Below, one piece after another: positions 4,105-34,653 of a stretch of DNA of 38,805 nt (within the stretch, counting starts at the first letter, position 1; every line of letters starts with the position of its first letter). Location of the stretch: positions 1 to 38,805 of the forward strand of contig CAYOYH010000001.1 of NCBI GenBank assembly GCA_964408165.1, in the 5' to 3' direction. The notes beneath the pieces were generated by a model. It did not search any database. It saw nothing but the letters and a program-made list of their open reading frames with translations, and was not told where the DNA came from. The DNA is from an uncultured Candidatus Saccharibacteria bacterium (lineage in GTDB: Bacteria > Patescibacteriota > Saccharimonadia > Saccharimonadales > CAYOYH01). A program made the position numbers and the translations under genes.

Positions 4105-4594
4105 GAAAAAGATTATTCCCATTCTACACAATATCCGCTCACTGCATAATGTCGGGTCTATTTTGCGCACCTGCGATGGGCTGGGTATTGGGGAGTTATG
4201 GGTCAGCGGCTACACTCCCTACCCTAAGATTGAAGATGACGACAGACTGCCACATGTCAGCAGACGGGCCACTAAGCAAATAGCCAAAACAGCACTTGGC
4301 GCGCAAGGTAGCGTCAGGGTAGTGCATTTTAACAATATCGACGAGTTGGCTAAACACGCCAAAACCTTAAATCTTGAACTGGTGGCCATTGAGCAAACAC
4401 CGAGCAGTATTAACCTAAACCAGTTTCACCCCCGCACCAGTGTTGGCCTGGTATTTGGCAACGAAATTGACGGCCTAGATTCCAGTATTTTAAAACTCTG
4501 CCAGCAAATCGTAGAAGTGCCAATGAAGGGGCAAAAAGAATCATTCAATGTCAGTGTTGTAGCTGGGATTGTTTTATACACTGTTGCTGCCTAG
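4103..4594 (+). CDS. SpoU/TrmH-family RNA 2'-O-methyltransferase
   Basis: NVGSILRTCDGLG, VFGNEIDGL, ESFNVSVVAGIVLY motifs. Start at MKKIIPILHN. Confidence 0.8.
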   Translation: MKKIIPILHNIRSLHNVGSILRTCDGLGIGELWVSGYTPYPKIEDDDRLPHVSRRATKQIAKTALGAQGSVRVVHFNNIDELAKHAKTLNLELVAIEQTPSSINLNQFHPRTSVGLVFGNEIDGLDSSILKLCQQIVEVPMKGQKESFNVSVVAGIVLYTVAA

Positions 4595-5240
4595 AAAATA
4601 ATTTGGGTAAGCTTGCTTTAGCAATCTGAGGCCTCCTGTTGCCATAAGAACGGATTCGGTTCTATTCGCCCTTTGTGGCTCGCGTCTCCGTCCTTGCATA
4701 GTCCTCTGAAGCCCGAGAAAGCTGCTCTTTCCTGTAGGACTGAATCGTCATCAAATATTTTCCAGAACTTTAAGTATAATCAGAATGAACCTCCCCGAGC
4801 TTACGCCTGCCTACCGGCAGGCAGGCACGGGGTATCATTTCAATTCAAGCTTCGCTTGTCCGGCATCTTTGTTTAGAAGATGCCGGAAAGACTCTCCTGC
4901 CCGCGGGCTAACGCCCGCGGAAATTCGGCGGAAGATTATATAACTTTCAGTATGCCTTTTTAACCATTTCACCCTTTCAGGGTTCATCAGCATAGCTAAT
5001 TTATCTATGGATGGTTGGGTGCGGCAGTTGCGAGTTTACGATTGCCTGAGCAATCATTACTAAGCGCAAGTACCACACCAAGGGATTTGATTAGGATTCC
5101 CTCATTCCTAGTAGGCGTATCCGACGTTTCTTTTAACAGCACTGCTATCAGCCCTCTAAAGCCAATTTGGCTAAGTATGCCACTGGTGCAGCGACGCAGG
5201 TCAGTGGAATGGTCCACATGAGCCCGCGTCTGGCTTCGCA

Positions 5241-5798
5241 TCAGTCTCGGGGGTGTTTCTGTCCCCACTCTAGGACTGCCTTTGCAAGTCCTCTTAGTTT
5301 TGTGGCGAAGGAGCCTTCGCCGACGTCAAACTCCTTCGAGGCAGTAACGGTACTGCATCCGATGCCTCGCCTACCCAGCTCAGCAATAGCAGTCGGGTCC
5401 TTGTTGAAGTAGACGAGACCTCCCACGTAGTAGCTGGTCAGAGGTTCTGACCAAAGCAACGCTCTCTCGAGGTCTGCGTCGCTCAATGGCCAAACAAGCA
5501 CAGCTCGTACTATGTTGTTGCCGGGCGCTGCTAAACGAACCTTTTTCGTCTTTTGTGTAATCGGTAACAGGTGCCTAGCCGTCTCGGTATACCGGCTGCT
5601 CCCCTCTCGCCCAGTATCGAAAACCACGATTATGAGAACCATGATTTCTTGCAAGGCATCGGTGTCTTTCGCCAACGACGCTAAGAACTCGGGCGCCAGG
5701 CGCCACTCTACTCGAACCTTTCTGATCCTTCCTGGATTCGGGTTGGTGACCAGCGTAAAGCCAGCCTCCGTATTTATAGTTGGGAGTTTAGCGGGCAT
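5241..5798 (-). CDS. hypothetical protein (accessory, no recognisable domain)
   Basis: 185-aa ORF with AGGAGG 5 nt upstream of the ATG. GC looks higher than the neighbouring genes. Confidence 0.55.
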   Translation of the reverse strand: MPAKLPTINTEAGFTLVTNPNPGRIRKVRVEWRLAPEFLASLAKDTDALQEIMVLIIVVFDTGREGSSRYTETARHLLPITQKTKKVRLAAPGNNIVRAVLVWPLSDADLERALLWSEPLTSYYVGGLVYFNKDPTAIAELGRRGIGCSTVTASKEFDVGEGSFATKLRGLAKAVLEWGQKHPRD

Positions 5799-5909
5799 TA
5801 CTACCTCCTAAGAGTAGTCGTAAGAACTATTCGCAAAGAATTTCCCTGCAAATCTGCAATCATTTATACAATAGATTTGACTACAAAGCAAGGCGTATTG
5901 GTAATGTGC

Positions 5910-6946
5910 TATACTAAGCCCCAGTTTATTGAACACTTTAGTTCTAGAATATGGGTATGTGTAAAATGAAGTATTTAACAAAGAGACAAGTACTAGATTA
6001 CCGAGGGAGAGTTTTAAAAGAAGCAGATGGTTTAGGTGTTAGCGCAGCCTCAAGAAGATACGGAGTAAGCAGAGGAACTATCTACAACTGGTCTAGAGAA
6101 ATCATGCCTCAGAAGACTGGCCCAAAGAATGCTGTCTTCTGGCAGACAGACAAGGTGATAGAAGAACTAATCATTCAGGTTAGGTTAGCCACTGACTACG
6201 GCCCGCAACGAATTAAAGATGAGCTGAACGACTTCGGTGTTACTGTCGGTGAGAAAGCCATTCGAGGTGTTATTGAAACAGCTGAGCTTGTTAAAAAGCA
6301 ACGCAAGCCCAAGAAGAGAGCTACCCAGAGATTTCATGTCTCTCATCCTGGCTATCGCGTACAGATAGATACTAAAGCCATTCCAGTACTCGGGGGAAAG
6401 GATAAGCGCAAGAGTAGACGACAGCAGTTCACAGCCATAGATATAGCGAGTAAGATACGCTACCTAGAGGTTATGGATGGACTAAGCAACACTAATTCAC
6501 TACTGTTCACCGAGCGAGCCATACAATTCTATGAAGATATTGGTATTACCGTTGAATGTGTACAGACCGACAATCATAGTACCTTTACTAACCTCTACGC
6601 CGGGGGTAACAAGAAAGCTGATCATGAACTACGAAGAGTTCACCCATTAACCCTCTACCTAACAGGTAGAGGAATTGAACATAAGTTGTCTCGGCCTGGT
6701 ACACCACAGCACAACGGCTTTGTAGAGCGTAGTCATCGAACAGATGAAGAAGAGTTTTACAGAGTCACCACAGCAGCCTCTCTAGGGCTTACAGTACTTC
6801 AGGACAAGATGAAGCAGTGGCAAGATGAGTACAACAATCTAAGGCGACATTCTTCCTGCAAGAACTTACCTCCTATGGACTACTTCAATTTATACTGGAA
6901 GGAATTACTCAATGCCTAGGTGTGTAGACAACTGGGGCTTAGTACA
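5910..6946 (+). mobile_element. IS481-family insertion sequence with 17-bp terminal inverted repeats and a 14-bp target-site duplication
   Basis: IRL tatactaagccccagtt (5910-5926) matches the reverse complement of IRR, tgtactaagccccagtt (6930-6946), at 16/17 positions. The flanking direct repeat tattggtaatgtgc is at 5896-5909 and 6947-6960. Confidence 0.85.
5951..6919 (+). CDS. IS481-family DDE (rve) transposase
   Basis: N-terminal HTH (RRYGVSRGTIYNW). DDE candidates are in VQIDTK, VQTDNHS and NGFVERSH. Confidence 0.85.
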   Translation: MGMCKMKYLTKRQVLDYRGRVLKEADGLGVSAASRRYGVSRGTIYNWSREIMPQKTGPKNAVFWQTDKVIEELIIQVRLATDYGPQRIKDELNDFGVTVGEKAIRGVIETAELVKKQRKPKKRATQRFHVSHPGYRVQIDTKAIPVLGGKDKRKSRRQQFTAIDIASKIRYLEVMDGLSNTNSLLFTERAIQFYEDIGITVECVQTDNHSTFTNLYAGGNKKADHELRRVHPLTLYLTGRGIEHKLSRPGTPQHNGFVERSHRTDEEEFYRVTTAASLGLTVLQDKMKQWQDEYNNLRRHSSCKNLPPMDYFNLYWKELLNA

Positions 6947-7001: not shown

Positions 7002-7994
7002 TTATAGGCAATATCGTGGAGGTTTTGGCTCTTCCGTACGACTATAAAGATACCAATCTACCAGTCTCATTTGGTGCACTACAGGCATGCCTCTATGAGC
7101 CTTTAATTTGAGCCGTATTTGAGAGTTTATACCACCCTCAATGTGGTTAGTAGTACTAGGTAGTTCTGGGTGTGGTCGGTAGCTTGAACGCAGTAAATCG
7201 TCAGTAATTTCATGTAACTGTTTGTAAGCACTTCTTAACCTAGCGTGAGTGTAGTGCCATCGTCTTTGACCAGGCTGAGGATCCTGCCTCATGGTTCTCT
7301 CGTCTATATAGCTGTGGTGCTTTCGGTGCCAATGTTTTAACTTTCTCTTCCAGCTTCTGGCTTGTCGTCTGGTGCGAATATGCAATAAGTTTCGCGTCAG
7401 TTGTAGTAATTCTTGTGCTGGAGCAGACTTAGGGCGTAGAGTTAGTTTTGACTTCACATTGAGCCAGGCGTGGAACCGACAACGCTGAACAGTAGTCTCT
7501 GGCCAACAGATAGCAATTGCTTTTAGCATGCCTCTTTGACCATCACAGACAACATACTTAGGTTGAGGTAACAACCGCAACAACTCAGTCCAGTACTGGC
7601 TACTTTCATAGGGCATCCAGACCCAGGTAATAACATAGTCGGTAGTTCTAGCAATAAGACAAACATTACTGCCAACTCGAATGCCATCAACAACAACGGC
7701 ATGGTGTATTTCACCAGTCAGGGTGTTTGGTGGGGCTACATTCCAGCACCATGATGTTTGATTGCGGAAAGTTCGCGGTGGTTGCTCTAGCTCGTTCTGA
7801 GCCAGCTTACCAAGCAACCAAGACACAAATCTTTCTAGTTCGTAGCCACGACTTAAATCTGGGCGTAAACTAAGTTTGCTTTGCGCACAGCAGTGGCACA
7901 GCCAGCGTTGCTTACCAGTGGCAGTTTTGCCGCGTTTTTGGAGCTTGTTTTTACATGTCTCGCAATGATAATTGCATGTTCTTTTTTCATTCAA
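7002..7994 (-). CDS. Zn-ribbon DDE transposase (IS1-InsA-like finger; IS256/IS1249-group-like core)
   Basis: CETCKNKLQKRGKTATGKQRWLCHCC finger, plus VVCDGQRGMLKAI, QRCRFHAWLN and TTNHIEGGINSQIR. Confidence 0.75.
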   Translation of the reverse strand: MNEKRTCNYHCETCKNKLQKRGKTATGKQRWLCHCCAQSKLSLRPDLSRGYELERFVSWLLGKLAQNELEQPPRTFRNQTSWCWNVAPPNTLTGEIHHAVVVDGIRVGSNVCLIARTTDYVITWVWMPYESSQYWTELLRLLPQPKYVVCDGQRGMLKAIAICWPETTVQRCRFHAWLNVKSKLTLRPKSAPAQELLQLTRNLLHIRTRRQARSWKRKLKHWHRKHHSYIDERTMRQDPQPGQRRWHYTHARLRSAYKQLHEITDDLLRSSYRPHPELPSTTNHIEGGINSQIRLKLKAHRGMPVVHQMRLVDWYLYSRTEEPKPPRYCL

Positions 7995-8434: not shown

Positions 8435-8989
8435 ATGAGCGGTGTTTTAGCGTGCCACGATATCACATATAGAATTTTGGGGAATATTCTTAGGCTGGGT
8501 TTGAAGGGCACCGTTTGGACCACTAAAACACTGGTAAAAGAAGTTTATAAGCTTATTGACCCAACAACTAAAAGAGAGCTTTCCAGAGCCGGAAAACAGT
8601 CTGAAACAGAGGTAAAAAGATTACTTTACTATGCCAAGAGGAAAGGATATATCGACCAAGACTATCGGACGACTCAGGCCGGCAAACAAAAACTTGCAAG
8701 CTTGAGCCTTCAGCCGTTGTCGATTCCCAAATCATGGAACAAGAAATGGAGCATGATAATTTTTGATGTTCCGGAAGAAAATCGAAGGTTTCGTTACCAT
8801 GTGCGTAGATTGATCAAGCAGCTCGGGTTCGTTCAGCTGCAGCAAAGCGTATGGATTCACCCCGCAGTCTGTGAAAAAGAATTCAAGTTGATAAGCGACG
8901 CCTACTCAGCCGGTGGATCACTGCTACTACTTTCAGTAAATCATAGAAGTACACTAGATAAACACCTAAAACATTTCAAGACTAAATAA
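8435..8989 (+). CDS. PaaX-like transcriptional regulator (wHTH plus Cas2-like ferredoxin-fold domain)
   Basis: WSMIIFDVPEENRRFRYHVRRLIKQLGFVQLQQSVWIHP matches the PaaX/Cas2-like core pattern. The N-terminal ~90 aa are wHTH-like. Confidence 0.65.
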   Translation: MSGVLACHDITYRILGNILRLGLKGTVWTTKTLVKEVYKLIDPTTKRELSRAGKQSETEVKRLLYYAKRKGYIDQDYRTTQAGKQKLASLSLQPLSIPKSWNKKWSMIIFDVPEENRRFRYHVRRLIKQLGFVQLQQSVWIHPAVCEKEFKLISDAYSAGGSLLLLSVNHRSTLDKHLKHFKTK

Positions 8990-10005: not shown

Positions 10006-10461
10006 TCAAACGTCGAGGAAGACGATGACGGAGTTGTCATGAACATGCATAATCCCCTTATTTATCTTCAACTTCTCTTCATCGCGCGCAGTGCGTACTA
10101 TCACTTCTCCGGGCAAAAGGAGTGACAAGAAATTCTTGTGCCCTGGTAAAACATCGAACGGCCCAGTGCCGTTGACGGCTGAAACGCTGTAGGCTGTGCT
10201 ATCGAAATACGTCTGAAACGGTGAATGCACTTTAACTTGGCGCAGCATAATTACGCCTTTGTCATCTTTAACGTCTTCGATGTGTTTTTTGCCTTTTTCT
10301 TTTTTCTTGGCAATTGCTTTAGGGGGGGTTTTGATGATTTCAGCCTGTTCGTCGGTGGCGTCTTTTTCAAGCGTGACCATTCGTGCCTGAGCAGCCTTCA
10401 TTTTTTTTATGGCTTCTTCCTTGGCTTTGTTGTCGCTTTCTTTCAAAGCTTTAGCTGCCAT
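10006..10461 (-). CDS. atpC: F-type ATPase epsilon subunit: beta-sandwich only, with a ~70-aa Lys/Glu-rich N-terminal extension
   Basis: C-terminal MLRQVKVHSPF...GPFDVLPGHKNFLSLLLPGEVIV...IMHVHDNSVIVFLDV matches the epsilon N-domain. I preferred the ATG at 10461 (GAGGTG 4 nt upstream). An alternative ATG is at 10473. Confidence 0.75.
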   Translation of the reverse strand: MAAKALKESDNKAKEEAIKKMKAAQARMVTLEKDATDEQAEIIKTPPKAIAKKKEKGKKHIEDVKDDKGVIMLRQVKVHSPFQTYFDSTAYSVSAVNGTGPFDVLPGHKNFLSLLLPGEVIVRTARDEEKLKINKGIMHVHDNSVIVFLDV

Positions 10462-10560
10462 GTCGCACCTCATAAAATATAGCCAGACTATGCAGGCCTC
10501 TCTTTTTACTGTTTTTTCGGTAGTAGTGCTGTTTTTGCGGCATATTTACCTTTGCAATTC

Positions 10561-12743
<2,183 letters not shown>

Positions 12744-12744
12744 G

Positions 12745-14175
12745 TTATTTTTTCAACTCGATTAGACTGCTTTCGAGCAGTTGCGCCTTCATGCCGTCAA
12801 ATTCTTCGTCTTTGGTAACTTTCTGGGCGTATTCGTTGGCTAGTTTCTTCATGCCGGCAATATCAATAACTGTCCCCGACTCGCTCTCTAGAATAATCGT
12901 CAGCATCAGTTGCTGCGCCATTAGGCTGAACCTCTCGCCTGGTGCTTGGGTGAATAGCTCTAATACTTTCTTGCCTAGCTCAATGTCTCTCCTGGCTTCA
13001 ACTGCCAGCTCGGAGCCAAAGTGGGAAAATTCCTGCGCAGTATGGTACCTAGCCATCAGTTTGAGCAGCCGAGAAGCAATGTCTTTCTGGCGCTTGTTGT
13101 GCCCAATACCTCCAACGCGTGAAACCGAAAGGCCAGTGCTAATTGGTGGACGAATACCGTCGCGGAACATATCCATATCCATGATTAACTGGCCGTCAGT
13201 AATCGACATGATGTTCGTAGGTAGATAGGCGGTGATATCGCCAGCTGGAACGTGGACAATTGGCAATGAGGTCAGCGTCTTGCCTGTGGATTTTATCCGC
13301 CCCGCTCTTTCTAGGAGCGATGAATGAGCGTAAAACATATCGCCAGGATAGGATTCTCGTCCAGGGCTAACACCGGCCACCAAGGATATTTCTCTGTAGG
13401 CAAAGGCGTGGTTAGTTAGATCGTCGTAGATCACCACAACGTCACGATTTTCTTCCTGCCACAAGTACTCAGCCATGGCACAGGCAACGTAGGGCGCAAG
13501 GTAGGACATAGCTAGCGAATCGAACAAATTAGACACAATAACTATGGTGTTGGTCATGGCGTCATTGCTATGGAGCATATTCAGTAGATCGTCAACATCG
13601 GAGCGACGCTTGGCAATCATGCAGTAAATAACTATGCGATCCGTTCCTTTTTGATTAAGTGTCAATTGAGCCAAAAGCGTACTCTTTCCTGATTTGTTTT
13701 CACCAATGAATGCCAGACGCTGACCCAAAAGCAAGGGAAACAGTGAGTCTATGAGGATGGTGCCTGTTTCCAGCTGGTCCTGCAGTTGCTGGCGTCCAAT
13801 AAGTTTCGGCGCTAAATTAAACACTGGCCAGACCTTATCTGGAGTGACCGGGCCTTTACCGTCCATCGGTTTACCATTTACCGTCACCACTCTGCCGATG
13901 AATTCTTTACCAACCTTAGTTACTAGCTCGGTGTGCTGTAACACGGTAGCAACACCTGTCTTCAGAACTTTATTGCCCAAATGGAGCACTGCCACGAAAT
14001 CTTCCGTTACCTCGCGAACCACGCCTTTGGAACCATCGGCAAACATCACTAAGGCGTTTATATTAATCGGGTGGAGCCCTCTAATTTTAAGTAGGTAGCG
14101 ATCGACGGCTATAACTTCGCCAACTGGATTTCCTTTACCTACTAAATAGTGGAAGTGTTTCTCCGATGAGCTCAC
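12745..14175 (-). CDS. atpA: F-type ATPase alpha subunit (divergent, 476 aa)
   Basis: [10 protein letters not shown]-loop and [23 protein letters not shown]. Confidence 0.9.
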
Positions 14176-14702
14176 GCTGATACCTCGGCAGCAGGTTGAG
14201 ATTGGCTTGTAGCCGAAGCATCCACCACCATTTTGTTCAAATATTTAGTAAAAATTGGTATGCCCTGCAGCAGTTCGTTGCGCAAAGAAAAATCGTAGCG
14301 ATGTGAAGACGTGTGCATTATGCAGCCGGCAGCAACGCTAGGCTGGACACTAGTTCTGATGAGGACTGTTTTGTTCGAATTATCTCTAAGCCATTTGACT
14401 AGTTTAGACACTACTTCGTTGTTTGGATCGCTGGCAAAAGTGAACCTAACTACTGGAGCATTGTGCTTTAAACCTTCGAGCCATTTACCGAGAGCTCGGA
14501 GGTTTTTGGTGTTCACTTTAAGGTTATTGACTTTCACTATCTGTGCCAATGCCGAAGACACATCTGGAATGTCCTGAAAATCCACGCCTTCTTCGCTGCG
14601 GATCGTGTTTTGGATGCCTTTGTCCAGGACATCCTCTAAATTCCTAAGAACATTTACTACCTGGGTTTTGGTCGCAACTGATACTGGAAGCCTATAGTCC
14701 AC
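14172..14702 (-). CDS. atpH: F-type ATPase delta (OSCP)-like subunit
   Basis: Position in the operon. C-terminal [33 protein letters not shown] resembles the delta C-domain. GTG start. Confidence 0.6.
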
Positions 14703-14714
14703 CCTTTTTTACTC

Positions 14715-15335
14715 CTAGCTTCCGCTGACGATATCTTCCAATATCGCCTGTTTGTTATCTTCCAAGTGCTGGTAGATGTACTCCATTTGATCGCTAATGT
14801 CTAGCTCGCCACCAATAGCTTCGAGAATGTAGTGGTTAACTACTTGACCCATGTTTTCTTCGAACTTCTCTAGTAGCATTTTCTTCTCGCTGGCTAGTTC
14901 TTCGTGAAGTTTCTGTGTTAATTCGTTCCTCTGTCGCTCAACAGTCTCTTGAGTTTTCTGCAGAGCCTCAACCGCAAGGTCTTTGGCGTTTTCTATGGAT
15001 TTTTCGTATTTGGAGAATTCTTCTTTCAAAACTCCCTTAATCTCCTCCTGCATATATTCGTTTAGGTCAGACGCCGTCAGCTGTAGGTCTTGCTGTAGGA
15101 ACATGGCGTTGTCGTTGATGATTTTTTCGAAATGCAAACGACCGCGGTTACGAAGCTCCTCGCGGAACTCGTCATTAAAAATACGCTCAACATCATCTTT
15201 AGCAGCTTCGATATGATTGGAATTGCGGGACCCCTTACCTGCTGAGCCACCTCGCAATACATACGCCAGCCAGACAAAAGCACTAGTTGTCGCTAGTAAG
15301 CTGATTATGATAAACGCCAGCCATAAAATATTCAC
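14715..15335 (-). CDS. atpF: F-type ATPase b-like subunit (one N-terminal TM helix plus a long charged coiled coil)
   Basis: Architecture and operon position. GTG start. Confidence 0.6.
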   Translation of the reverse strand: MNILWLAFIIISLLATTSAFVWLAYVLRGGSAGKGSRNSNHIEAAKDDVERIFNDEFREELRNRGRLHFEKIINDNAMFLQQDLQLTASDLNEYMQEEIKGVLKEEFSKYEKSIENAKDLAVEALQKTQETVERQRNELTQKLHEELASEKKMLLEKFEENMGQVVNHYILEAIGGELDISDQMEYIYQHLEDNKQAILEDIVSGS

Positions 15336-15349
15336 TTAAACCCCACCCC

Positions 15350-16180
15350 TTAAACTCTTAATATCAAGTATATAGCAAAGAATCCACTTAAGAAAATCGC
15401 TAGTGAGGTTATCACCACTTGGAGCAATCCGCGCATCGCAGATTTCTTGGCTAACGGGTTTCGACCTATCGCGACAAAAGTGCTTCTGATGCCGGCATAA
15501 AGCATGGTTCCACCAAGGCCGGCAGTCACCAGTAGAACCGCCATTGCGGCATAAACTCTCAGTAGCGACACTGGTTCTCCAGCTATAAGCTCACTAAATC
15601 GAACAATTAATTCTGGCGCAGACTGCGCCAAGCGCGGATTCCTTTTGACATCAAGATCAGTTAGTACTCGCCCAATGGCGACATCATGACTTGTCCCATC
15701 GGCTGCTATAGCGGTAGTGGAACTAAGGACGGCATCTGGATTGGTAGTGTCAAAATCCTGCAGAGCTTTGCCAATAACTAGCTCCTGCGAAGCACTGGCC
15801 CTCATGCCGATACTAGAAATCGACGAGGCAGTTATGTAATCTCCTGATCTTATTTCGCCGCCAACAGTGCTGACCATGACCTGGAAGCGTCCGGTCGTAG
15901 CAACAAAGACACCAGCTGTATCTGTTGTTAATGTGACAGGCGATTCGTCAGACCTAACTACTACACCAAAGAGTCGGCTTAGATTATCAAGACTTGCTGC
16001 ATCCACTAGAGTGTCATCCGTTTCATTTCTGGAGACTAGCGCGCCCCTAATGAGTTGGTCGTTAGTTCCATGACCCTGCGTAAAATCCTGTGCGTTAACT
16101 GCAGTAAAGCCAAAAAATATCGCAACCAGGGCAGCCACTACCCCGAACTTGAATGTGTTTTTGTTTATAATAGAAACCAT
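15350..16180 (-). CDS. secreted/membrane protein: signal peptide, ~190-aa extracytoplasmic domain, C-terminal two-TM hairpin resembling an ATPase c subunit
   Basis: MVSIINKNTFKFGVVAALVAIFFGFTAVNA|QD is a signal peptide. The C-terminus is AGLGGTMLYAGIRSTFVAIGRNPLAKKSAMRGLLQVVITSLAIFLSGFFAIYLIL. Start moved to the ATG at 16180, which removes the overlap with the upstream gene. Confidence 0.6.
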   Translation of the reverse strand: MVSIINKNTFKFGVVAALVAIFFGFTAVNAQDFTQGHGTNDQLIRGALVSRNETDDTLVDAASLDNLSRLFGVVVRSDESPVTLTTDTAGVFVATTGRFQVMVSTVGGEIRSGDYITASSISSIGMRASASQELVIGKALQDFDTTNPDAVLSSTTAIAADGTSHDVAIGRVLTDLDVKRNPRLAQSAPELIVRFSELIAGEPVSLLRVYAAMAVLLVTAGLGGTMLYAGIRSTFVAIGRNPLAKKSAMRGLLQVVITSLAIFLSGFFAIYLILRV

Positions 16181-16224: not shown

Positions 16225-16806
16225 TTAAAACAGATTTCTCAAGATTGTAACCCCGACCTTGAGGGTTTCGGACATCGTAATTTGCCAACCACTCGGTTGA
16301 TACCACCAAGTCGTAGCCCAGTCGTCATTTACTACGGGGTAATTAATGATTACAACATCAGGGCCAAGCTTGTCACGAAATTCTATGTAGGCTCGCCTCT
16401 GGTGGTACGGCGAGGTTACCAGAATGATACTTTCGTAATCTTTTTTTTGAGCTATGGCTTCACTTTTAATCGCATTCTGAGCGGTATTTTGAGCTTTTTC
16501 TTCTATCTGAATTACGGCGTCAGGTACTGCAGCACGCTTGGCAATTTCACGCATTACTTGCGCATTGGAAGGGCTGAGCGGATCCAGGGCGGCGCCTGAA
16601 AACACTAGCTGAGTGGCCCAGCCTGCTTCGTATAGCTTGATAGCTTGTTCAGTTCTGGCAGTGGTGTCTCCCCCGCTGATTGCAATAATAGCATCTACTT
16701 TTTGAAGTTCGCCACGCGGTGAAAGGTAGTTAGTTAAAAAATTAACCAAAAACGCTCCAAGAAATATTGCTCCAAGTCCCAATATTGCATATTTAATGAC
16801 AAACAT
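16225..16806 (-). CDS. DUF218 / YdcF-ElyC family protein
   Basis: N-terminal TM helix, AIIAISGGDT, LVFSGAA, ILVTSPYHQRRA. Confidence 0.75.
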   Translation of the reverse strand: MFVIKYAILGLGAIFLGAFLVNFLTNYLSPRGELQKVDAIIAISGGDTTARTEQAIKLYEAGWATQLVFSGAALDPLSPSNAQVMREIAKRAAVPDAVIQIEEKAQNTAQNAIKSEAIAQKKDYESIILVTSPYHQRRAYIEFRDKLGPDVVIINYPVVNDDWATTWWYQPSGWQITMSETLKVGVTILRNLF

Positions 16807-17377: not shown

Positions 17378-17755
17378 CTAACCTCCAACCGGCGCGTAAA
17401 TGTGTTTTTGAGTCTGTTTGTAGTAATGAGTCATGGCTGTCACCAGGTTGCGTGACTCCTCAAGTGAAGTGTAGTGGTGCAATTGACCGTCTTGAGCTTT
17501 TAATATGCGCTCTCCCCGTATTTCATAACGAGTAGTCAGAGTAATGGTTTTGCCGGTGCTAGGGTCAATAGTTGATTCATACCAAATCCAGGTGTGTTCA
17601 TCTAGGCAGAAGAATTCTCGTCGGTGGCCTTTTGGTACTGGTCCAAACAAAGTGCCGCCAATTTTAGATTCCATGCGAATAAGGTCTCTTTCGGTGAGGG
17701 TTTTTTGGCTAGGTGCTGGGGTGATTAAACTTATTGCCCTGTGCAAAATAGACAT
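17378..17755 (-). CDS. hypothetical protein
   Basis: 125-aa ORF tightly coupled to the upstream 84-aa ORF. Confidence 0.45.
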   Translation of the reverse strand: MSILHRAISLITPAPSQKTLTERDLIRMESKIGGTLFGPVPKGHRREFFCLDEHTWIWYESTIDPSTGKTITLTTRYEIRGERILKAQDGQLHHYTSLEESRNLVTAMTHYYKQTQKHIYAPVGG

Positions 17756-27319: not shown

Positions 27320-27763
27320 CTATCGTCTAAACCCCAGCGCTTCTTTGACTAGTGGGTGAAGGTTTTCGGGAAGCTGACTAATGTCAAACCAGCCCGCTTC
27401 GATTATCTCAGGACGGCGCACTACAAAAACCTCTTTTTGAGGCAACGAAACCTCAAAAACAACTACTGGAAAAACGACGGTGTCTTCGTGCTGTCTAGTT
27501 CTTAGGATTTCTCTGAGCAATCCAGGATCTACACTCACATCTAACTCTTCGGCTATTTCTCTGCTCAAACCCTGATTCGGCGTCTCCCCACGGTGAAGAC
27601 CGCCACCCGGCAGAACCCATTTCTGTAGTCCAATCCAGTTACGAAGCAGTAGTACTTCGTTTTTGTAAATTATTAATCCGCGAGTGCGCAACTTTCTGGA
27701 TATAAACAAACGGACAAAAGGCTTGGCGACAAAAAAGATAAATCGTCCAATTCTTTCGCTCAC
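27320..27763 (-). CDS. NUDIX hydrolase
   Basis: Nudix box GGGLHRGETPNQGLSREIAEELD. GTG start overlaps the pcrA stop by 1 nt. Confidence 0.85.
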   Translation of the reverse strand: MSERIGRFIFFVAKPFVRLFISRKLRTRGLIIYKNEVLLLRNWIGLQKWVLPGGGLHRGETPNQGLSREIAEELDVSVDPGLLREILRTRQHEDTVVFPVVVFEVSLPQKEVFVVRRPEIIEAGWFDISQLPENLHPLVKEALGFRR

Positions 27764-30700
27764 TAAGCTTTTTCCAGTGGCGCAAAAGCAACGTTAAGCT
27801 TCTTGGTGCCGCGAGCACCGAACTTTATTTCCGCAGTTTGTCCGTCTACACCCTTAACGATCCCAACACCAAACACTGGGTGTCTAACTCGGTCACCACA
27901 GTGAAGATTTATCGGCGCTTCCTGAGCGTCGTACTCGACAGTCGGCTCGCTACCAGCCATTTCAAGGTCGCCTGCCGCTGAGACTTCCGAATCTATCTCG
28001 CTCAAAAACCGCGACGGAGCATTGTGTTGCACTGCACCATAAAGCAGTCGATTGCCGGCGTGAACCAAGTGCAACTCTTCTTTAGCTCGGGTCATGCCAA
28101 CGTAGCAGAGCCTTCGCTCCTCCTCCATTTGCGCCTGTTCCCAGAAAGCTCTGGAATGAGGAAATATACCCTCCTCCATACCAGCCATAAACACCACTGG
28201 AAATTCGAGCCCTTTTGCCGCATGCAGTGTCATCAAAGTAACGGCATCGGCTTTGGTATCGTAGCTATCGATGTCGCTAAGCAAAGCTACTTCCTCTAAA
28301 AACCCGTCTATGCCGAGTTCGACATATTCATGCGCCACCGACAGCAGTTCCCGCACATTCTCAATTCTTGATTCGCCCTGCAGGGTTTTATCGTCCAGAT
28401 AGTCAAAATAGTTGATCTGGCGAATCAACATATCTAGCACATTTTGAAGCGACGCGTCCTGCGAATATTCACGCAATTTTTCTAGTAACTGCGCTAACTC
28501 AACTAAGCCTTTTAGAGCTCGCTTGGTGAGTTTCGGGTGGGTTGCTACTTGGTTCATAGCCTCTGGCAAACTAAGCCCCGAAGCCTCCTGCCAGGAAAAA
28601 AAGCTCTCCAACGATTTGGCGCCAACACCCCGAGCAGGAACATTGACGATACGCAGGAAACTAACCCTGTCACTAGGCTGATACATCAAGCGCAGGTAGG
28701 CCACGATATCCTTAATCTCTTTACGGTCATAAAAACGCACCCCGCCGACAATGCGATATGGCACTCCGTATTGAACAAAGGCTTCCTCCAGCGCCCTGGA
28801 CTGAGCGTTGGTGCGGTACAAAACAGCGAAATCGCTATATTTTCTTTTGCCCCTGCTCACTGCTGAGCGAACTGCCCGTATGACATGCTCGCCTTCTTCT
28901 CGTTCGCCGCGGACACTCTCCACCTGCACCGGCAAACCAGCCTGGGCGTCGGTCCAAAGCTCTTTTTTTGAGCGACTTTGGTTTTTGGTAATTATCTGGT
29001 GGGCAGCGTCCAGTATCGACTGCGTAGAGCGATAATTTTGTTCGAGCTTGATGAGCGTAGTGTCAGGATAGTCTTTCTCGAAATTCAAAATATTGCGATA
29101 ATCCGCCCCGCGCCAAGAATAGATTGAATTATGCACAACCACATTTGCGGCTACGTAGTTATGCACCTGGTCGATGTCTAGGTCATACACTTCGCCACTG
29201 AAGCTGTCTTTACTGACTTCGACCACTTTGTCGTTGATAATTTTACCTTTTTTCATCACTGGCAACTCCATGCCGGCGTGAACTTGCCCAGCGGGCATGA
29301 ATGAGTATTTTTTATCAGAAATATTGGCAAATTTATTCACCTGCATTATTTCCTTATTCGCCGCTACCCTGTCGAGCAATTGTTCGATCTTTCCAAAATC
29401 TTTACTAAACACTTCTACGCGATAGGTTCCTTGTTTGCCTTGTCTCACATTTAGGCCCAGTTTTTCGAAAACTTTTAGGTCTTTTTTACTGGTGGTATTG
29501 ACCGATAATCTACTTGCAGACCAAGGGCTGGTAGTAGATATGCGTCTATCTCCAAAAAGTACAACATTTAGATTGACTCGCTTTAACCCATTGCGCACGG
29601 TCGCCTGAGGCTGGAAATGTGGATATTGAAAATTAATTGTTAAATCGCTCATTAGTTTTTGGGCTCTGTCTTTTGTATCTATTTCGGAAAAAATCGAGTC
29701 AATATATTTTTGGTCAAACTTCATTTGCCTGTTGGAATAAGCATGGAAAAGGAGCATTGGAATTCCGTATTTATACGAATACAAAGACTCCCAATAAAGA
29801 GCTTCTTGTCGGTTGGCACAAATTTTCAACACCCACATTCGATCAGCTCTTTCTTGATTGGCACGAACGCGTAGTCCGCTGTCGTACCCTCTTCCATCGC
29901 TGCGCGAACCTTTAGTGATTCCGATCCTGTAACCCTTGCCGCGCGAATACATTAAATACACAAAGTAGCCCTCTATTTTACCCCCCCTAGCGAACAGAAG
30001 ATGGTTTGGCGTAACGCGCAACTTCTGGTTTGAAGCTGTTTTAATAACCACCACGGCACCTTGGTATTTAAACTTGCGCAACTTCGTAACCTCAAAAAAC
30101 CCTGTTTTGCCGTAGCCACTCGCTGAGTGCACCATGTCGCCTTTTTTTACGATTTCAATATTCATCTCGCCGTTAGCAGTTTTAACTTTTGTGCCAGGAA
30201 GGAGGCATTGCCAGTCGTCGCCCACAACACAGATATTTTGATGTTTCTTGGCTAAAATTTTCACCAGCTGATACTGCGCAGCGTTAGTGTCTTGGTATTC
30301 GTCTATCAAGATATGTGAAAAATGCTTCTGCCATTTGGCGCGAACCTTCGTAGAACTTTCCAGCATCTGAACCGTTTTTTGCAACAAATCGTCAAAATCC
30401 AGCGCATTGGCTTCTTTGAGTAGTTTCTGGTAGACAACAAACACATCAGCGACTACCTTTTGGTTTGGTGTAGAGGCAGTAGCGGTGTAGTCTGACGGGC
30501 TCAGCATTTCGTTTTTAGCGCTGGAAATTAGACTAGCCACAGTTCTGGGCGCGTATTGCTTGGGATCAATACTAAGGCGTTTCATAGATTCTTTAATTGC
30601 CGCCGTCTGGTCTAGCGTGTCGAAAATGACGAAATTAGCTGGAATCGATATGTGTTCGCCATCTAGGCGTAAGAGGCGTACGCAGATAGAGTGGAAAGTC

Positions 30701-30975
30701 CCCATGAACGGCATCCAGCCACGGTTTGGGGCGGACTGTGAAGAACCGGTCATGAGTTCGTAAACTCGATTGCGCATTTCACCAGCCGCTTTATTGGTAA
30801 AAGTGACCGCCAATATATTCTCTGGAGCAATGTTTTTTTCACTCACCAAATAAGCGATGCGGTGCGTCAGAGTTTTGGTTTTACCACTGCCGGCACCAGC
30901 TAAAATCAAAAGCGGTCCATCGGTTTGTTGGACAGCCTTTTTTTGCTGATCGTTTAACCCCTCGAAAATATTCAC
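27763..30975 (-). CDS. pcrA: PcrA/UvrD-family ATP-dependent DNA helicase interrupted by an intein
   Basis: AGAGSGKT, ILIDEYQDTN, VVGDDWQ / SIYSWRGAD split, YRSTQ, VMTLHAAKGLEF, YVGMTRAKE, C-terminal HPVFGVGIV Tudor-like tail. GTG start. Confidence 0.9.
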   Translation of the reverse strand: MNIFEGLNDQQKKAVQQTDGPLLILAGAGSGKTKTLTHRIAYLVSEKNIAPENILAVTFTNKAAGEMRNRVYELMTGSSQSAPNRGWMPFMGTFHSICVRLLRLDGEHISIPANFVIFDTLDQTAAIKESMKRLSIDPKQYAPRTVASLISSAKNEMLSPSDYTATASTPNQKVVADVFVVYQKLLKEANALDFDDLLQKTVQMLESSTKVRAKWQKHFSHILIDEYQDTNAAQYQLVKILAKKHQNICVVGDDWQCLLPGTKVKTANGEMNIEIVKKGDMVHSASGYGKTGFFEVTKLRKFKYQGAVVVIKTASNQKLRVTPNHLLFARGGKIEGYFVYLMYSRGKGYRIGITKGSRSDGRGYDSGLRVRANQERADRMWVLKICANRQEALYWESLYSYKYGIPMLLFHAYSNRQMKFDQKYIDSIFSEIDTKDRAQKLMSDLTINFQYPHFQPQATVRNGLKRVNLNVVLFGDRRISTTSPWSASRLSVNTTSKKDLKVFEKLGLNVRQGKQGTYRVEVFSKDFGKIEQLLDRVAANKEIMQVNKFANISDKKYSFMPAGQVHAGMELPVMKKGKIINDKVVEVSKDSFSGEVYDLDIDQVHNYVAANVVVHNSIYSWRGADYRNILNFEKDYPDTTLIKLEQNYRSTQSILDAAHQIITKNQSRSKKELWTDAQAGLPVQVESVRGEREEGEHVIRAVRSAVSRGKRKYSDFAVLYRTNAQSRALEEAFVQYGVPYRIVGGVRFYDRKEIKDIVAYLRLMYQPSDRVSFLRIVNVPARGVGAKSLESFFSWQEASGLSLPEAMNQVATHPKLTKRALKGLVELAQLLEKLREYSQDASLQNVLDMLIRQINYFDYLDDKTLQGESRIENVRELLSVAHEYVELGIDGFLEEVALLSDIDSYDTKADAVTLMTLHAAKGLEFPVVFMAGMEEGIFPHSRAFWEQAQMEEERRLCYVGMTRAKEELHLVHAGNRLLYGAVQHNAPSRFLSEIDSEVSAAGDLEMAGSEPTVEYDAQEAPINLHCGDRVRHPVFGVGIVKGVDGQTAEIKFGARGTKKLNVAFAPLEKA
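29128..30207 (-). mobile_element. 360-aa intein in helicase motif III (residues 257-616)
   Basis: Starts CLLPGTKV, has block B VTPNHLLF, and ends VYDLDIDQVHNYVAANVVVHN followed by Ser+1. Excision restores DDWQSIYSWRGA. Confidence 0.85.
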
Positions 30976-32248: not shown

Positions 32249-33016
32249 CTAACTCCCGGCTAAATGGTGCGCCGAGCTAACAATCTCGGCAAATTGCTTG
32301 TAATTGAGGCTGGCACCGCCAACTAAGAGACCGTCTACGCCCTCGATGTTCATATAGCTTTTGGCGTTGTCTGGCTTTACGCTTCCACCGTAGAGCACCC
32401 TTAGTCCTTGTTCGGCTTTCGGACCATAAAGTTCGCGTACATTATGTCGGATAAAGTCTGTTGCTTCTTTGACTTGGTCTGGCTTGGCATAGTCACCGGT
32501 GCCTATGGCCCAAACCGGTTCATAAGCAATTGCTAAATCTTGAATTTCTTTGGCGGTTAGATTGCGCAAATCGGCCATTAATTGATCGTGTAGCACTTGC
32601 TTGGTTTCACCGCTAACGCGATCGACTGATGCTTCGCCGACACACAAGATTGGCTTTATTTTGTTTCGCACTAGGGCTGAGAGTTTTTTGCCGATGATGT
32701 CGTCGGTCTCGCCGAAAACATGCCGTCTTTCGGAATGGCCAACCAGACAGTAATCCACCAACCCATGAAGCATAGCTGCCGATACTTCGCCGGTGTAGGC
32801 GCCTTCATCTTTGTAGAATGCGTCCTGAGCGCCCAGTTTCATTTTGTGTTTGTTGGTCTGTAGATTGAGTGGCTGAATAGACATGATGCTAGGGAAAATA
32901 ACTACCTCTACATCTCGGTGCGCTTCGATATTTTTCTCAAGTCTATGCAGTAAAACACTGGCCTGATGGGTGTTTAGATTCATTTTCCAGTTACCGGCGA
33001 TTAGTTTTTTACGCAT
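32249..33016 (-). CDS. tpiA: triose-phosphate isomerase
   Basis: AGNWKMN, VGHSERR, AYEPVWAIGTG, LYGGSV. Confidence 0.95.
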   Translation of the reverse strand: MRKKLIAGNWKMNLNTHQASVLLHRLEKNIEAHRDVEVVIFPSIMSIQPLNLQTNKHKMKLGAQDAFYKDEGAYTGEVSAAMLHGLVDYCLVGHSERRHVFGETDDIIGKKLSALVRNKIKPILCVGEASVDRVSGETKQVLHDQLMADLRNLTAKEIQDLAIAYEPVWAIGTGDYAKPDQVKEATDFIRHNVRELYGPKAEQGLRVLYGGSVKPDNAKSYMNIEGVDGLLVGGASLNYKQFAEIVSSAHHLAGS

Positions 33017-33231
33017 AAGTTTTTCTATAGCCCACCTTCGTTCTTATGGTTACTATCATAAGTTACCGAGGCGAAACTGGCAACACGAACTCGAGTCCTG
33101 TCGTAGTATCTTTAAAAACTTTCCCGCTGACTAGAGTGGCTGACTGGCGGTGAATTCGGATATGCGCAGGTACTTAAATAAAAGTCAGCACCTGGCTCTA
33201 GCAAGCCTGTTTGACTACCCAAGAAATCGGA

Positions 33232-34419
33232 TTATTTATCCAGGAGCGCTTCAACGCCTGGTAAATCTCTGCCAGCCATCAGCTCTAGGCTAGCTCCACC
33301 ACCAGTGGAAACATGAGTAAATTTGTCCACTAAGCCAAGCTTATGTATAAACCCAGCGCTGTCGCCACCGCCAATAATACAGTTTAAGTTTTGGCTGGCG
33401 ATAAACTTGGCCACTTCTTCGGTGCCTTTTTTGAACTTTTCAAACTCAACTACACCTAAGGGGCCGTTCCAGATAATCGTGCCGGCGGTTTTTAGGGTTT
33501 TTTTAATATTCTCGATAGTGCGGGGACCAAAATCCATTATTATGTCGGCACTGGCGACATCTTCGGTGGCAACATCATGCCTTTCGGAGCTTTGGTCAAA
33601 GCTAGTCCCCACTGCTACATCAAAAGTCGGTAGTATTAGTTTGGTTTGGCTCAGTTCGCAGTGTTCTATTACCTCTTTGGCGGTGTCTGTTTCGTGGGGG
33701 TCGTATTTGCTAGAGCCGACATCGTAGCCCATGGCCACTAAAAAAGTATTGGCCATCGCTCCGCCAACAATCATGCTGTCTGAAGCTTCTAAAAAGCGCT
33801 CCAACAGATCAATCTTGTCCGCTATTTTGGCGCCACCGACCATCGTTACTAGCGGTTTTTGGGGGTCGTTAATCGCTTTGTTTATGGCTAAAACCTCGCC
33901 CTCTAGCAGTAGTCCGGCAACGGCTGGTAAGAACTGAGTGATGGCGTCAGTACTGGCGTGCGAGCGGTGCACTACCCCGAAGCCATCTTGGACGAAATAA
34001 TCGGCTAGTTTGGCTAGTTGTTTGGCGAACTCAGCGTCATTGCTTTCTTCCTCTTTGTGAAAACGCAAGTTTTCTAATAACAACACCTCGGCAGGCTTTA
34101 ATTTTTTCGTAGCTTGCCAGGCGCCGTCGCCAACAGTTGTTGGTGAAAAAGCAACTTCTTGGCCTAGAAGTTCACTCAGCCTCTGGGCTACAGGTTCTAG
34201 GCTTAAATCTTTGCTTACCCCTGGGCCAGGTCGCCCTAGGTGGGAAATGATGATGACTTTGGCGTTTTGATTTAGTAAATACTGGATTGTTGGTATGTTT
34301 TTGCGGATGCGGTAATCGTCGGTGATTTTGCTGTCGCTCATTGGCACATTGTAATCAGCACGCACCAAAACGGCTTTATCTGTAAAATCTATATCTCGAA
34401 CGGTTTTTTTATTGAACAT
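33232..34419 (-). CDS. pgk: phosphoglycerate kinase
   Basis: VRADYNVP, ISHLGRP, GGAKIADKI, IIGGGDS, STGGGASLE. Start at MFNKKTV. Confidence 0.95.
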   Translation of the reverse strand: MFNKKTVRDIDFTDKAVLVRADYNVPMSDSKITDDYRIRKNIPTIQYLLNQNAKVIIISHLGRPGPGVSKDLSLEPVAQRLSELLGQEVAFSPTTVGDGAWQATKKLKPAEVLLLENLRFHKEEESNDAEFAKQLAKLADYFVQDGFGVVHRSHASTDAITQFLPAVAGLLLEGEVLAINKAINDPQKPLVTMVGGAKIADKIDLLERFLEASDSMIVGGAMANTFLVAMGYDVGSSKYDPHETDTAKEVIEHCELSQTKLILPTFDVAVGTSFDQSSERHDVATEDVASADIIMDFGPRTIENIKKTLKTAGTIIWNGPLGVVEFEKFKKGTEEVAKFIASQNLNCIIGGGDSAGFIHKLGLVDKFTHVSTGGGASLELMAGRDLPGVEALLDK

Positions 34420-34544
34420 CTTGAGTCTTAGTGTACCAAAACACTTATGGTTTTTTCGAATAAACCTCAAAGAAACAGCAACACTTCAACACGTGCTCTT
34501 GGTTTGCGAACCGAGGTTCGACCTTCTCCGGAGAGAAGTACCAA

Positions 34545-34578: not shown

Positions 34579-34653
34579 TGGTGATCCCAACGGGAGTCGA
34601 ACCCGTATTTCCAGGATGAAAACCTGGTGTCCTAACCATTAGACGATGGGACC
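34579..34653 (-). tRNA. tRNA-Glu (anticodon UUC), CCA encoded
   Basis: GGTCCCATCGTCTAATGGTTAGGACACCAGGTTTTCATCCTGGAAATACGGGTTCGACTCCCGTTGGGATCACCA folds as a cloverleaf with a 7-nt anticodon loop UUUUCAU. Confidence 0.9.

Follow-up and report, generated by a model that had tools for sequence, protein, structure and literature searches.

Which membrane partner serves an F1-type ATPase whose operon lacks the genes for the a and c subunits? The question is raised by a 38,805-nucleotide stretch of DNA from an uncultured Candidatus Saccharibacteria bacterium (GenBank assembly GCA_964408165.1, contig CAYOYH010000001.1, positions 1 to 38,805), hereafter the window. On its minus strand, from 16180 down to 10006, the list of open reading frames (ORFs) shows a seven-gene operon. 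The first gene encodes a 276-aa protein that we call X (15350–16180, stop codon 15350–15352). It is followed by genes for a b-like protein (14715–15335, 206 aa, GTG start), a delta/OSCP-like protein (14172–14702, 176 aa), F1-like alpha (12745–14175, 476 aa), gamma (11859–12743, 294 aa) and beta subunits (10561–11862, 433 aa; catalytic, with a short C-terminus) and an epsilon-like subunit (10006–10473, 155 aa). We propose, with a probability of about 45%, that these genes encode a membrane-bound F1-type ATPase whose membrane partner is X, a subunit derived from c that binds no ions and bears a surface domain, and not a canonical Fo.

An earlier note on this DNA, made from the letters alone, had given the gene order from the b-like gene to epsilon and had claimed that atpB and atpE are absent from the cluster, their place being taken by the 276-aa protein. 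The ORF coordinates are exactly as it had them, and our searches of the window agree with the absence: six-frame phmmer searches and Pfam scans of the other genes found no a- or c-like ORF in the 38.8 kb, and a hydrophobicity survey found no other ORF with several transmembrane (TM) helices that would suit as a or c. Neighbouring genes of the operon are separated by 12–14 nt or overlap by 4 nt, except for a gap of 87 nt between beta and epsilon, and a ribosome-binding site, AAGGGGTGGGG, lies between the stop codon of X and the GTG start of the b-like gene. X starts at the ATG at 16180, as in the public record (276 aa, 100% identical) and in its homologues; a longer start, TTG at 16309, was rejected because it overlaps a DUF218 gene and is unsupported by homologues. 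Pfam and NCBIfam identified alpha, beta, gamma and epsilon, and delta weakly; neither set of models recognised the b-like protein or X.

What is X? We built an AlphaFold2 model from an alignment of 87 sequences (predicted local distance difference test score, pLDDT, 83). The model contains an N-terminal helix at residues 7–24, a beta-rich domain at 34–180, two short helices, and a hairpin formed by helices 206–240 and 242–275, in agreement with the earlier description of a signal peptide, an extracytoplasmic domain and a C-terminal two-helix hairpin. The hairpin (aa 203–276; 15353–15574, minus strand) resembles a c subunit. At its turn, the residues G239-R240-N241-P242-L243 form the sole run of invariant positions in X among 87 homologues of 38–82% identity, and GRNPL is invariant also in 41 hairpins of a more distant sister subfamily (see below). 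By this invariance and by alignment, the codons of G239-R240-N241-P242 (15455–15466, minus strand) correspond to the cytoplasmic R(Q/N)P loop of c subunits. In c subunits this loop contacts gamma and epsilon. The invariance of GRNPL is what would be expected of a loop that docks gamma/epsilon and is suggestive of that role. Typical c-subunit loops read AVEGIARQPEA and those of the sister subfamily GVEAIGRNPLAG; in the Chloroflexus c subunit the corresponding residues are AIGRNPE, and mitochondrial c subunits, like that of Chloroflexus, carry RNP in the loop. The c-like nature of the IGRNP loop, claimed earlier, is thus borne out by the Chloroflexus sequence, and the position of the turn matches the model.

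The loop is kept and the ion-binding residue is not. Both hhalign and HMMER alignments place a hydrophobic residue opposite the Asp or Glu of c subunits. In the X of the window this residue is Leu260 (codon CTA, 15401–15403, minus strand), which aligns with Asp61 of the E. coli c subunit. Neither helix of the hairpin contains Asp or Glu in the window protein, in 118 of 120 close homologues or in any of 74 sister-subfamily hairpins (192/194 together), so what the earlier note had said of the single protein is true of nearly the whole family. Judged from these alignments, the ion-binding carboxylate has been lost from the X hairpin. A further claim, that the first helix is rich in Gly, stands for the clade of the window, which carries AGLGG, and does not extend to the family, whose consensus is IAGSxLYAG.

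We asked whether the hairpin descends from a c subunit. Within the subfamily of the window the answer is faint. PF00137 (ATP-synt_C) matched neither the window protein, nor four hairpins, nor 87 full-length close homologues in Pfam searches, and a profile of the full-length X family gave chance matches only against PDB sequences. The profile comparison with c subunits that the earlier note had suggested was weak for this subfamily: hhalign against seven c subunits gave E 0.023 and a probability of 2%. One close homologue, P0104 (42% identical to the window X), matched the NCBIfam model NF005521, 'F0F1 ATP synthase subunit C', with E 0.004. At the level of structure, Foldseek superposed the predicted hairpin on solved c subunits with template-modelling (TM) scores of 0.8–0.9 and root-mean-square deviations (rmsd) of 1.1–1.7 Å, although any long helical hairpin might superpose on c subunits. 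The match to the Chloroflexus subunit 9itt_I had a TM score of 0.90 and an rmsd of 1.1 Å over 67 residues with 21% identity; identity to the bovine subunit 6j54_K was 24%.

The sister subfamily gave a clearer answer. It was recruited by a profile of the most divergent X representatives (E 2.5e-21 to 1.5e-12), is 24–26% identical to X and has the same architecture. A metagenome scan yielded 80 of its loci; its named members belong to Microgenomates, Woesebacteria and Levybacteria, and several carry the IMG label 'F0F1-type ATP synthase membrane subunit c'. Among 41 of its hairpins, 17 matched PF00137 (best E 4.2e-6; no other family matched more than 3/41), these matches being sub-threshold to marginal, with 14–18 bits among those listed against a cut-off of 24. 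NF005521 was matched by 22/41 (best E 1.3e-6), and several other NCBIfam subunit-C models were matched as well. Against the PDB, the profile of the sister subfamily had 14 matches, 13 of them c subunits (best E 1.9e-4). In hhalign, the sister subfamily aligned with c subunits at 84% probability (E 7e-6), the window subfamily aligned with the sister subfamily at 98.5% (E 4e-15), and the two subfamilies combined aligned with c subunits at 75% (E 2.5e-5). The link from X to c is therefore significant because the Microgenomates subfamily bridges the two, and it is by this route that the suggested comparison succeeded. We conclude from these profiles that the X hairpin is a diverged F-type c subunit, the homology being transitive via the sister subfamily.

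The rest of X faces the outside of the cell. Its predicted signal peptide (aa 1–30, ...TAVNA|QD; 16091–16180, minus strand) comprises the hydrophobic helix 7–24 of the model and a putative cleavage site; in X homologues an AxA-Q motif precedes a mature N-terminus that is itself conserved, Q-x-(V/F)-T-Q-G-Y. The extracytoplasmic beta-rich domain with its short linker helices (aa 31–200; 15581–16090, minus strand) has a phage cement/appendage-like fold in the model. Foldseek searches of the PDB with the ectodomain picked out, besides further capsid-stabilising proteins, the outer shell protein of the Borrelia phage BB1 (8pkh, E 4.5e-4); searches of BFVD found preneck appendage, tail-fibre N-terminal and capsid-fibre proteins with E-values down to 6e-9. 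By sequence, PF23982 (XM1_gp53 minor capsid) matched 32/87 members of the X family (best E 2.9e-5) and PF09956 (Phage_cement_2) matched 5/87; the window X itself scored 14.9 bits against PF23982, under the curated cut-off of 27. In the model, then, the kinship with the cement/appendage fold is clear at fold level, and the likeness in sequence is weak but recurrent. Phage cement or decoration domains and appendage N-terminal domains (PF23982, PF09956; PDB 8pkh, 5wk1, 8saj) share this fold; unlike them, the domain of X belongs to no virion: a cellular operon encodes it, joined to a membrane hairpin. The family is large. It has at least 276 homologues, the named close relatives being Candidatus Saccharimonadales, and a profile search of 1.84 billion representatives returned 623 clusters (50% identity) at E<=1e-30 and 7078 at E<=1e-3.

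We then examined the F1 subunits, taking the NCBIfam equivalog cut-offs as the criterion for canonical F1Fo subunit status. Alpha matched PF00006 (E 2e-64) and scored 380 bits with TIGR00962 (atpA), whose cut-off is 484. Beta matched the same Pfam family (E 1e-64) and came closer to its equivalog, TIGR01039 (atpD), with 445 bits against 463. Gamma matched PF00231 (E 4e-28) and scored 81 bits with TIGR01146 (cut-off 194). The delta-like protein was borderline in PF00213 (E 2.4e-4, 21.6 bits against 22.3) and reached 23 bits (E 7e-5) with the NCBIfam delta models, against 57.5; its orthologues give weak OSCP matches. Epsilon matched PF02823 at residues 79–153 and scored 43 bits against an NCBIfam cut-off of 67. 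Thus, no F1 subunit of the operon attains its NCBIfam equivalog cut-off, and for each of them the canonical F-type models are still the closest.

Divergence has spared the catalytic residues. Alpha and beta are 30–40 residues shorter than canonical, yet 85/85 related betas carry Walker A (GGAGVGKT), GERxxEG and Walker B; among the alpha orthologues, the P-loop is present in 72/72 and the Arg finger, SV(S/T)R(V/A/I)G, in 67/72. The earlier note had called these two subunits short and divergent with their catalytic motifs kept, and the description holds across their relatives. Judged by these intact motifs, the F1 head is catalytically competent. Epsilon consists of the beta-sandwich only (aa 79–155); its C-terminal helical, regulatory domain is absent. 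The 78 residues at its N-terminus (10240–10473) form a Lys/Glu-rich, clade-specific and probably disordered extension that is conserved at the protein level in the nearest relative (locus L006), other clades having different acidic extensions or none; epsilon orthologues measure 87–104 aa. The sub-equivalog scores of the F1 subunits and an epsilon without regulatory helices would fit an altered role.

The b-like protein owes its name to position and shape alone: one predicted N-terminal TM helix is followed by a long helical part. Its residues ~48–95 hold a nearly invariant 45-aa block, VEHIFNDEFREELRNRGRLHFEKII..., with the pattern VE(R/H)IFNDEFREELRNRGRLHFEKII..NAMFLQQDL.LT.S.LNEYM, whereas the other stalk residues vary freely among Saccharibacteria. 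Judged by its conservation, the block looks like a specific binding surface. Profile searches of Pfam, NCBIfam and the PDB found no relative of the b-like protein or of its conserved block.

Is X linked to this F1 in other genomes? We scanned for beta relatives, taking one genome per GTDB species, and kept the best 80 of more than 576; all 80 are Saccharibacteria, with 64–92% identity, and 67 of their loci extend far enough upstream to judge X. In 55/67, X lies directly upstream of the b-like gene. The beta-anchored loci have a common neighbourhood of genes for methionyl-tRNA synthetase (MetRS), TatD and a small conserved protein, often with a class-V aminotransferase. Starting from X instead, we found the full operon in 6/6 Saccharibacteria loci, including that of a metagenome-assembled genome (MAG) named Ca. 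Saccharimonas aalborgensis. The conserved synteny of the 276-aa gene with the b-like gene, which the earlier note had proposed to check, is thus seen from both ends. In the Microgenomates subfamily, alpha and beta lie within 5 kb downstream of X in 25 of the 28 loci with enough downstream DNA. Since the linkage between X and F1 is kept in both subfamilies, it survives a divergence of X to 24–26% identity. The system is widespread in at least two Candidate Phyla Radiation (CPR) classes, Saccharimonadia and Microgenomates, and probably occurs in WWE3 as well.

Two features of the Microgenomates-type operons deserve mention in their own right. In 9 of 25, a gene for cofactor-independent phosphoglycerate mutase stands between X and the b-like gene (L086, at 4328–6052, and L093, L094, L096, L097, L098, L103, L105 and L143), which puts a glycolytic enzyme inside an F1-like operon. 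The insertion recalls the phosphoglycerate kinase that has been described as associated with the F1-like gliding motor of Mycoplasma mobile. Two loci also contain a second, oppositely oriented X-like copy a few kb from the copy in the operon (L093, minus strand, near 5075; L108, near 6885).

The conservation of these parts bears on the possibility that the operon is a decaying remnant, its Fo genes lost after respiration was lost, the rest on its way out, and X an unrelated neighbour. An ATP synthase is dispensable in one cultivated Saccharibacterium, the G6 oral Saccharibacteria have none, and X is repeatedly missing from related operons, all of which would suit such decay. We nevertheless regard it as very improbable: the operon is intact and its catalytic residues are conserved in 85/85 species sampled, X has an invariant loop and recurs throughout the 623 clusters found at E<=1e-30, its linkage to F1 is kept across two CPR classes, and the b-like protein retains its nearly invariant 45-aa block. 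The intact operon, the invariant loop, the kept linkage and the block are signs of long purifying selection.

Are a and c encoded elsewhere? We searched up to 10 kb around the operon in 169 related loci of two CPR classes, 2.0 Mb in total. None of the 169 loci contained an a-like ORF, and the only match to c profiles at E<=1e-3 was itself an X hairpin. Published genomes point in the same direction. Chiriac 2022 reported a Saccharimonadia clade that 'encoded only the F1 subunit'. Three of our loci (L057, L063 and L077) come from MAGs of that study, from the family UBA10212, and in its summary table the F-type ATPase module is not complete in the column that we take to be UBA10212. In a complete WWE3 genome, Kantor 2013 found that the ATPase operon's genes for a, b and c had no homology, and named as putative c a TM protein common to the ATPase operons of OP11 and WWE3. 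A canonical arrangement does exist in the phylum: the Saccharibacterium Southlakia epibionticum has an AtpI-a-c-b-delta-alpha operon with an alpha of 511 aa, and this is its single ATP synthase gene set. We consider it likely, though well short of certain, that X-bearing genomes lack a canonical a subunit.

Several observations weigh against a partnership of this F1 with X in place of Fo. The absence of a and c covers at most 10 kb around the operon, and canonical atpB and atpE or a second complete operon may exist elsewhere in the genome. Saccharibacteria with rhodopsin possess complete clusters that include H+-type c subunits, and soil Saccharibacteria with a cytochrome bo3 oxidase have been reported with an 'F-type ATPase', which would be more sensible if a gradient-driven synthase existed. 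In 12 of the 67 beta-anchored operons, b-delta-alpha-gamma-beta-epsilon is intact with no X beside the b-like gene (L015, L016, L020, L038, L046, L063, L064, L068, L070, L077, L078 and L080). In these loci, one of which lies on a complete 840-kb chromosome, ~120 nt separate the b-like gene from the preceding class-V aminotransferase gene. They are scattered over the beta tree, so X was lost or moved several times; it is there either relocated or dispensable, and a genome can retain this F1 with no X next to it. Conversely, three Microgenomates X genes are not succeeded by F1 genes, and some Microgenomates operons are without b and delta, X being followed directly by alpha, gamma, beta and epsilon (L101, 3357–7960; L160, 9944–14750; L115). 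As to X itself, the first helix is without the classical GxGxGxG ring-packing motif, the window subfamily alone falls below significance against c-subunit profiles, and the phage-like fold of the ectodomain is typical of trimers and not of 8–15-mer rings. Finally, without a, there is no obvious brace for the one TM helix of the b-like protein, and the use of torque is hard to see.

Some of these facts would be in keeping with an ordinary, ion-coupled F1Fo with a split operon, whose a and c genes lie elsewhere and in which X is an accessory or assembly factor or a carboxylate-free minor member of a hybrid c ring (compare c1 of Acetobacterium woodii) that adds a surface domain. The 12 operons that keep F1, b and delta without an adjacent X would be expected of such an enzyme, as would the retention of b- and delta-like stalk genes, which a coupled enzyme has too; canonical a and c are present in other Saccharibacteria, an F-type ATPase has been described in the aerobic soil Saccharibacteria with bo3 oxidase, and some known rings are hybrids that include non-binding hairpins (PDB 4bem, c1/c2). 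We think a split operon unlikely all the same. The emptiness of the 10 kb around 169 operons in two CPR classes speaks against it, and where Saccharibacteria do have a and c, these adjoin b in an operon with the 511-aa alpha. The reported 'F1 only' clade of Saccharimonadia, the sub-equivalog scores of every F1 subunit, a b-like protein without detectable homology to b, and the loss of the regulatory domain of epsilon point the same way.

How might an F1-type ATPase work with X as its membrane partner? X would have derived from an F-type c subunit that kept its hairpin and R-N-P loop and lost its carboxylate, and would have acquired, at its N-terminus, a secreted domain of ~170 aa whose fold is phage cement/appendage-like. 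Because the N-terminus of a c subunit faces outward, each X protomer would expose this added domain at the surface of the cell. The operon has no a gene and the hairpin no protonatable residue; classical ion-gradient coupling is therefore not expected, and an ATP-hydrolysing motor is. Alpha3beta3 would hydrolyse ATP and turn gamma/epsilon, while the b/delta-like stalk would anchor the head at the membrane. Through its GRNPL loop X, probably oligomeric, would dock gamma/epsilon as the c ring does, so that torque or torsion would pass to the X oligomer and from there to its ectodomains. In place of ion pumping, the machine would do work at the cell surface, mechanical or conformational; attachment to or movement on the host, work on the cell wall or surface layer, and the gating of a pore are all conceivable. 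We infer the binding of X to this F1, its assembly into a ring, rotation, the lack of a and c throughout the genome and the kind of work done at the surface. In its boldest form, the proposal would be that Saccharimonadia and Microgenomates (and probably WWE3) made the ATP synthase into an ion-uncoupled rotary motor, a carboxylate-free c ring with a phage-derived crown that F1 spins or twists; that form we put forward as doubtful.

The same list of parts would serve a different machine, one in which the X oligomer is a gated pore or a platform for export or import, energised or gated by the F1-like head and the b/delta-like proteins, and in which the epibiont exchanges material with its host and nothing rotates. 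FliI, FliJ and FliH, which are homologous to beta, gamma and b-delta, serve the type III export gate in a comparable way, and by NCBIfam the distance of alpha and beta from the FliI/SctN ATPases can be measured. CPR bacteria rely on lipids and nucleotides derived from the host, and a ring of uncharged hairpins crowned by ectodomains has the geometry of a capped channel. We hold this to be distinctly unlikely, however: alpha and beta are clearly closest to the F-type and not to FliI, gamma and epsilon are F-type, the lumens of c rings are usually plugged with lipid, and the operon contains no conserved gene related to a substrate.

Several other genes of the window were noted. A soluble 125-aa protein (17378–17755, minus strand), without a Pfam match and with the motif GG.LFGPVPKGHRREFFCLD..TW.W.E, is encoded upstream of the operon together with MetRS and TatD, a position kept in most of the 80 Saccharibacteria loci. 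We considered this protein as a part of Fo and rejected it because it is soluble and because an aminotransferase gene separates it from the operon in most genomes. Triosephosphate isomerase and phosphoglycerate kinase genes (32249–34470, minus strand) adjoin a tRNA-Glu(TTC) (34579–34653, minus strand), ~16 kb away from the ATPase operon. An intein interrupts a UvrD/PcrA-type helicase of 1070 aa (27763–30975, minus strand), with Intein_splicing and Hint matches between the N- and C-terminal helicase domains. Beyond the other end of the operon, an IS3-like rve integrase with helix-turn-helix domains (5951–6919, plus strand) adjoins a Mutator-family transposase (7002–7994, minus strand), and a protein with a PaaX/Cas2-like domain (8435–8989) lies beside these two transposase genes.

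The answer matters for how these organisms are understood. Reconstructions of CPR bacteria (Patescibacteria) routinely score such an operon as 'F-type ATPase, partly complete' and then draw a proton-driven synthase or a pump that maintains the membrane potential. If the partner of this F1 is a c-derived protein unable to bind ions, and a is absent, both readings are wrong for hundreds of species, and the question of how their membranes are energised is reopened. The operon would also be the second independent case, after the F1-like X0 of mycoplasmas, of a host-dependent minimal bacterium reusing F1 at the cell surface, and the first whose membrane partner is traceable to the c subunit itself. 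Roles of c rings beyond carrying ions would become directly testable and, if the motor is rotary, a new class of surface mechano-enzyme would be at hand. The fusion to a phage cement/appendage-like domain links structural folds of virions to a cellular motor.

How does the system compare with known ATPases? With the canonical F1Fo (atpIBEFHAGDC; PF00137/COG0636) it shares alpha, beta, gamma, epsilon and a weak delta that are F-type by profile, as well as the gene order from b onward; X shares with the c subunit the hairpin, its length and topology and the R-N-P loop. The operon differs in having neither an a gene nor a free-standing c gene, and X differs from c in that its hairpin is the C-terminal quarter of a secreted 276-aa protein in which Leu replaces the carboxylate. 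Three defining features of F1Fo are thus absent here: the a subunit, the c carboxylate and equivalog-level scores. N-ATPase, the alternate F1F0, was rejected: the alt_F1F0 models gave 321/750, 395/752, 49/282 and 22/100 (bits/cut-off), and alt_F1F0_F0_C was matched by only 1/41 sister-subfamily hairpins.

The closest parallel is found in Mollicutes. Their F1-like X0 ATPases, Type 2 (the gliding motor of Mycoplasma mobile) and Type 3 (associated with MIB-MIP), likewise combine F1-like alpha, beta, gamma and epsilon with non-Fo membrane proteins, and both they and the window system occur in host-dependent, genome-reduced bacteria. The mycoplasma enzymes have a cell-surface role and not one in energy conservation; Type 3 is needed for a surface function, the cleavage of antibodies by MIB-MIP. 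Mycoplasmas retain a genuine F1Fo alongside. The mycoplasma 'Protein 5' (MSC_0620/MMCAP2_0577) begins with a signal peptide followed by a large ecto region and ends in two uncharged TM helices (Beven 2012, PMC3369863; Berlureau 2026, PMC12994834). This topology is that predicted for X, at 87 kDa against the 276 aa of X, and NCBIfam scans showed no sequence similarity between X and the families associated with the mycoplasma F1-like ATPases. The mycoplasma cluster has seven genes, among them those for a 12-TM 'Protein 1' and a small cytoplasmic 'Protein 2', and has no b or delta (PMC3369863); some Microgenomates operons resemble it in lacking b and delta. Membership of the Mollicutes F1-like X0 was rejected for the window operon, in which b- and delta-like genes are present and there is neither a 12-TM gene nor Protein 2. 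Its alpha and beta score below the family models (256/520, 375/570, 312/600 and 347/850 bits/cut-off for MSC_0619/MSC_0618 and MMOB1660/MMOB1670), and the canonical atpA and atpD models score higher. The F1-like X0 analogy drawn by the earlier note is therefore apt in the shared topology of Protein 5 and X, and fails as a family assignment by models and gene content. By analogy with Protein 5, a CPR rotary surface motor might share an evolutionary or mechanistic link with the mycoplasma F1-like X0.

Most probably, this is the same system that Kantor 2013 (in WWE3 and OP11) and Chiriac 2022 noticed in passing, in one or two sentences each; the Microgenomates subfamily fits the description that Kantor 2013 gave of the OP11/WWE3 operons. 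Several papers on Saccharibacteria or other CPR bacteria state just that an F-type ATPase is present, and our literature searches found, in the papers covered, no description of the missing carboxylate, the fused phage-like ectodomain, the absent a or the spread across Saccharimonadia and Microgenomates. An F1-like ATPase with a non-Fo membrane sector is known; what is new is a membrane subunit that can be traced to c and is fused to a phage-like surface domain.

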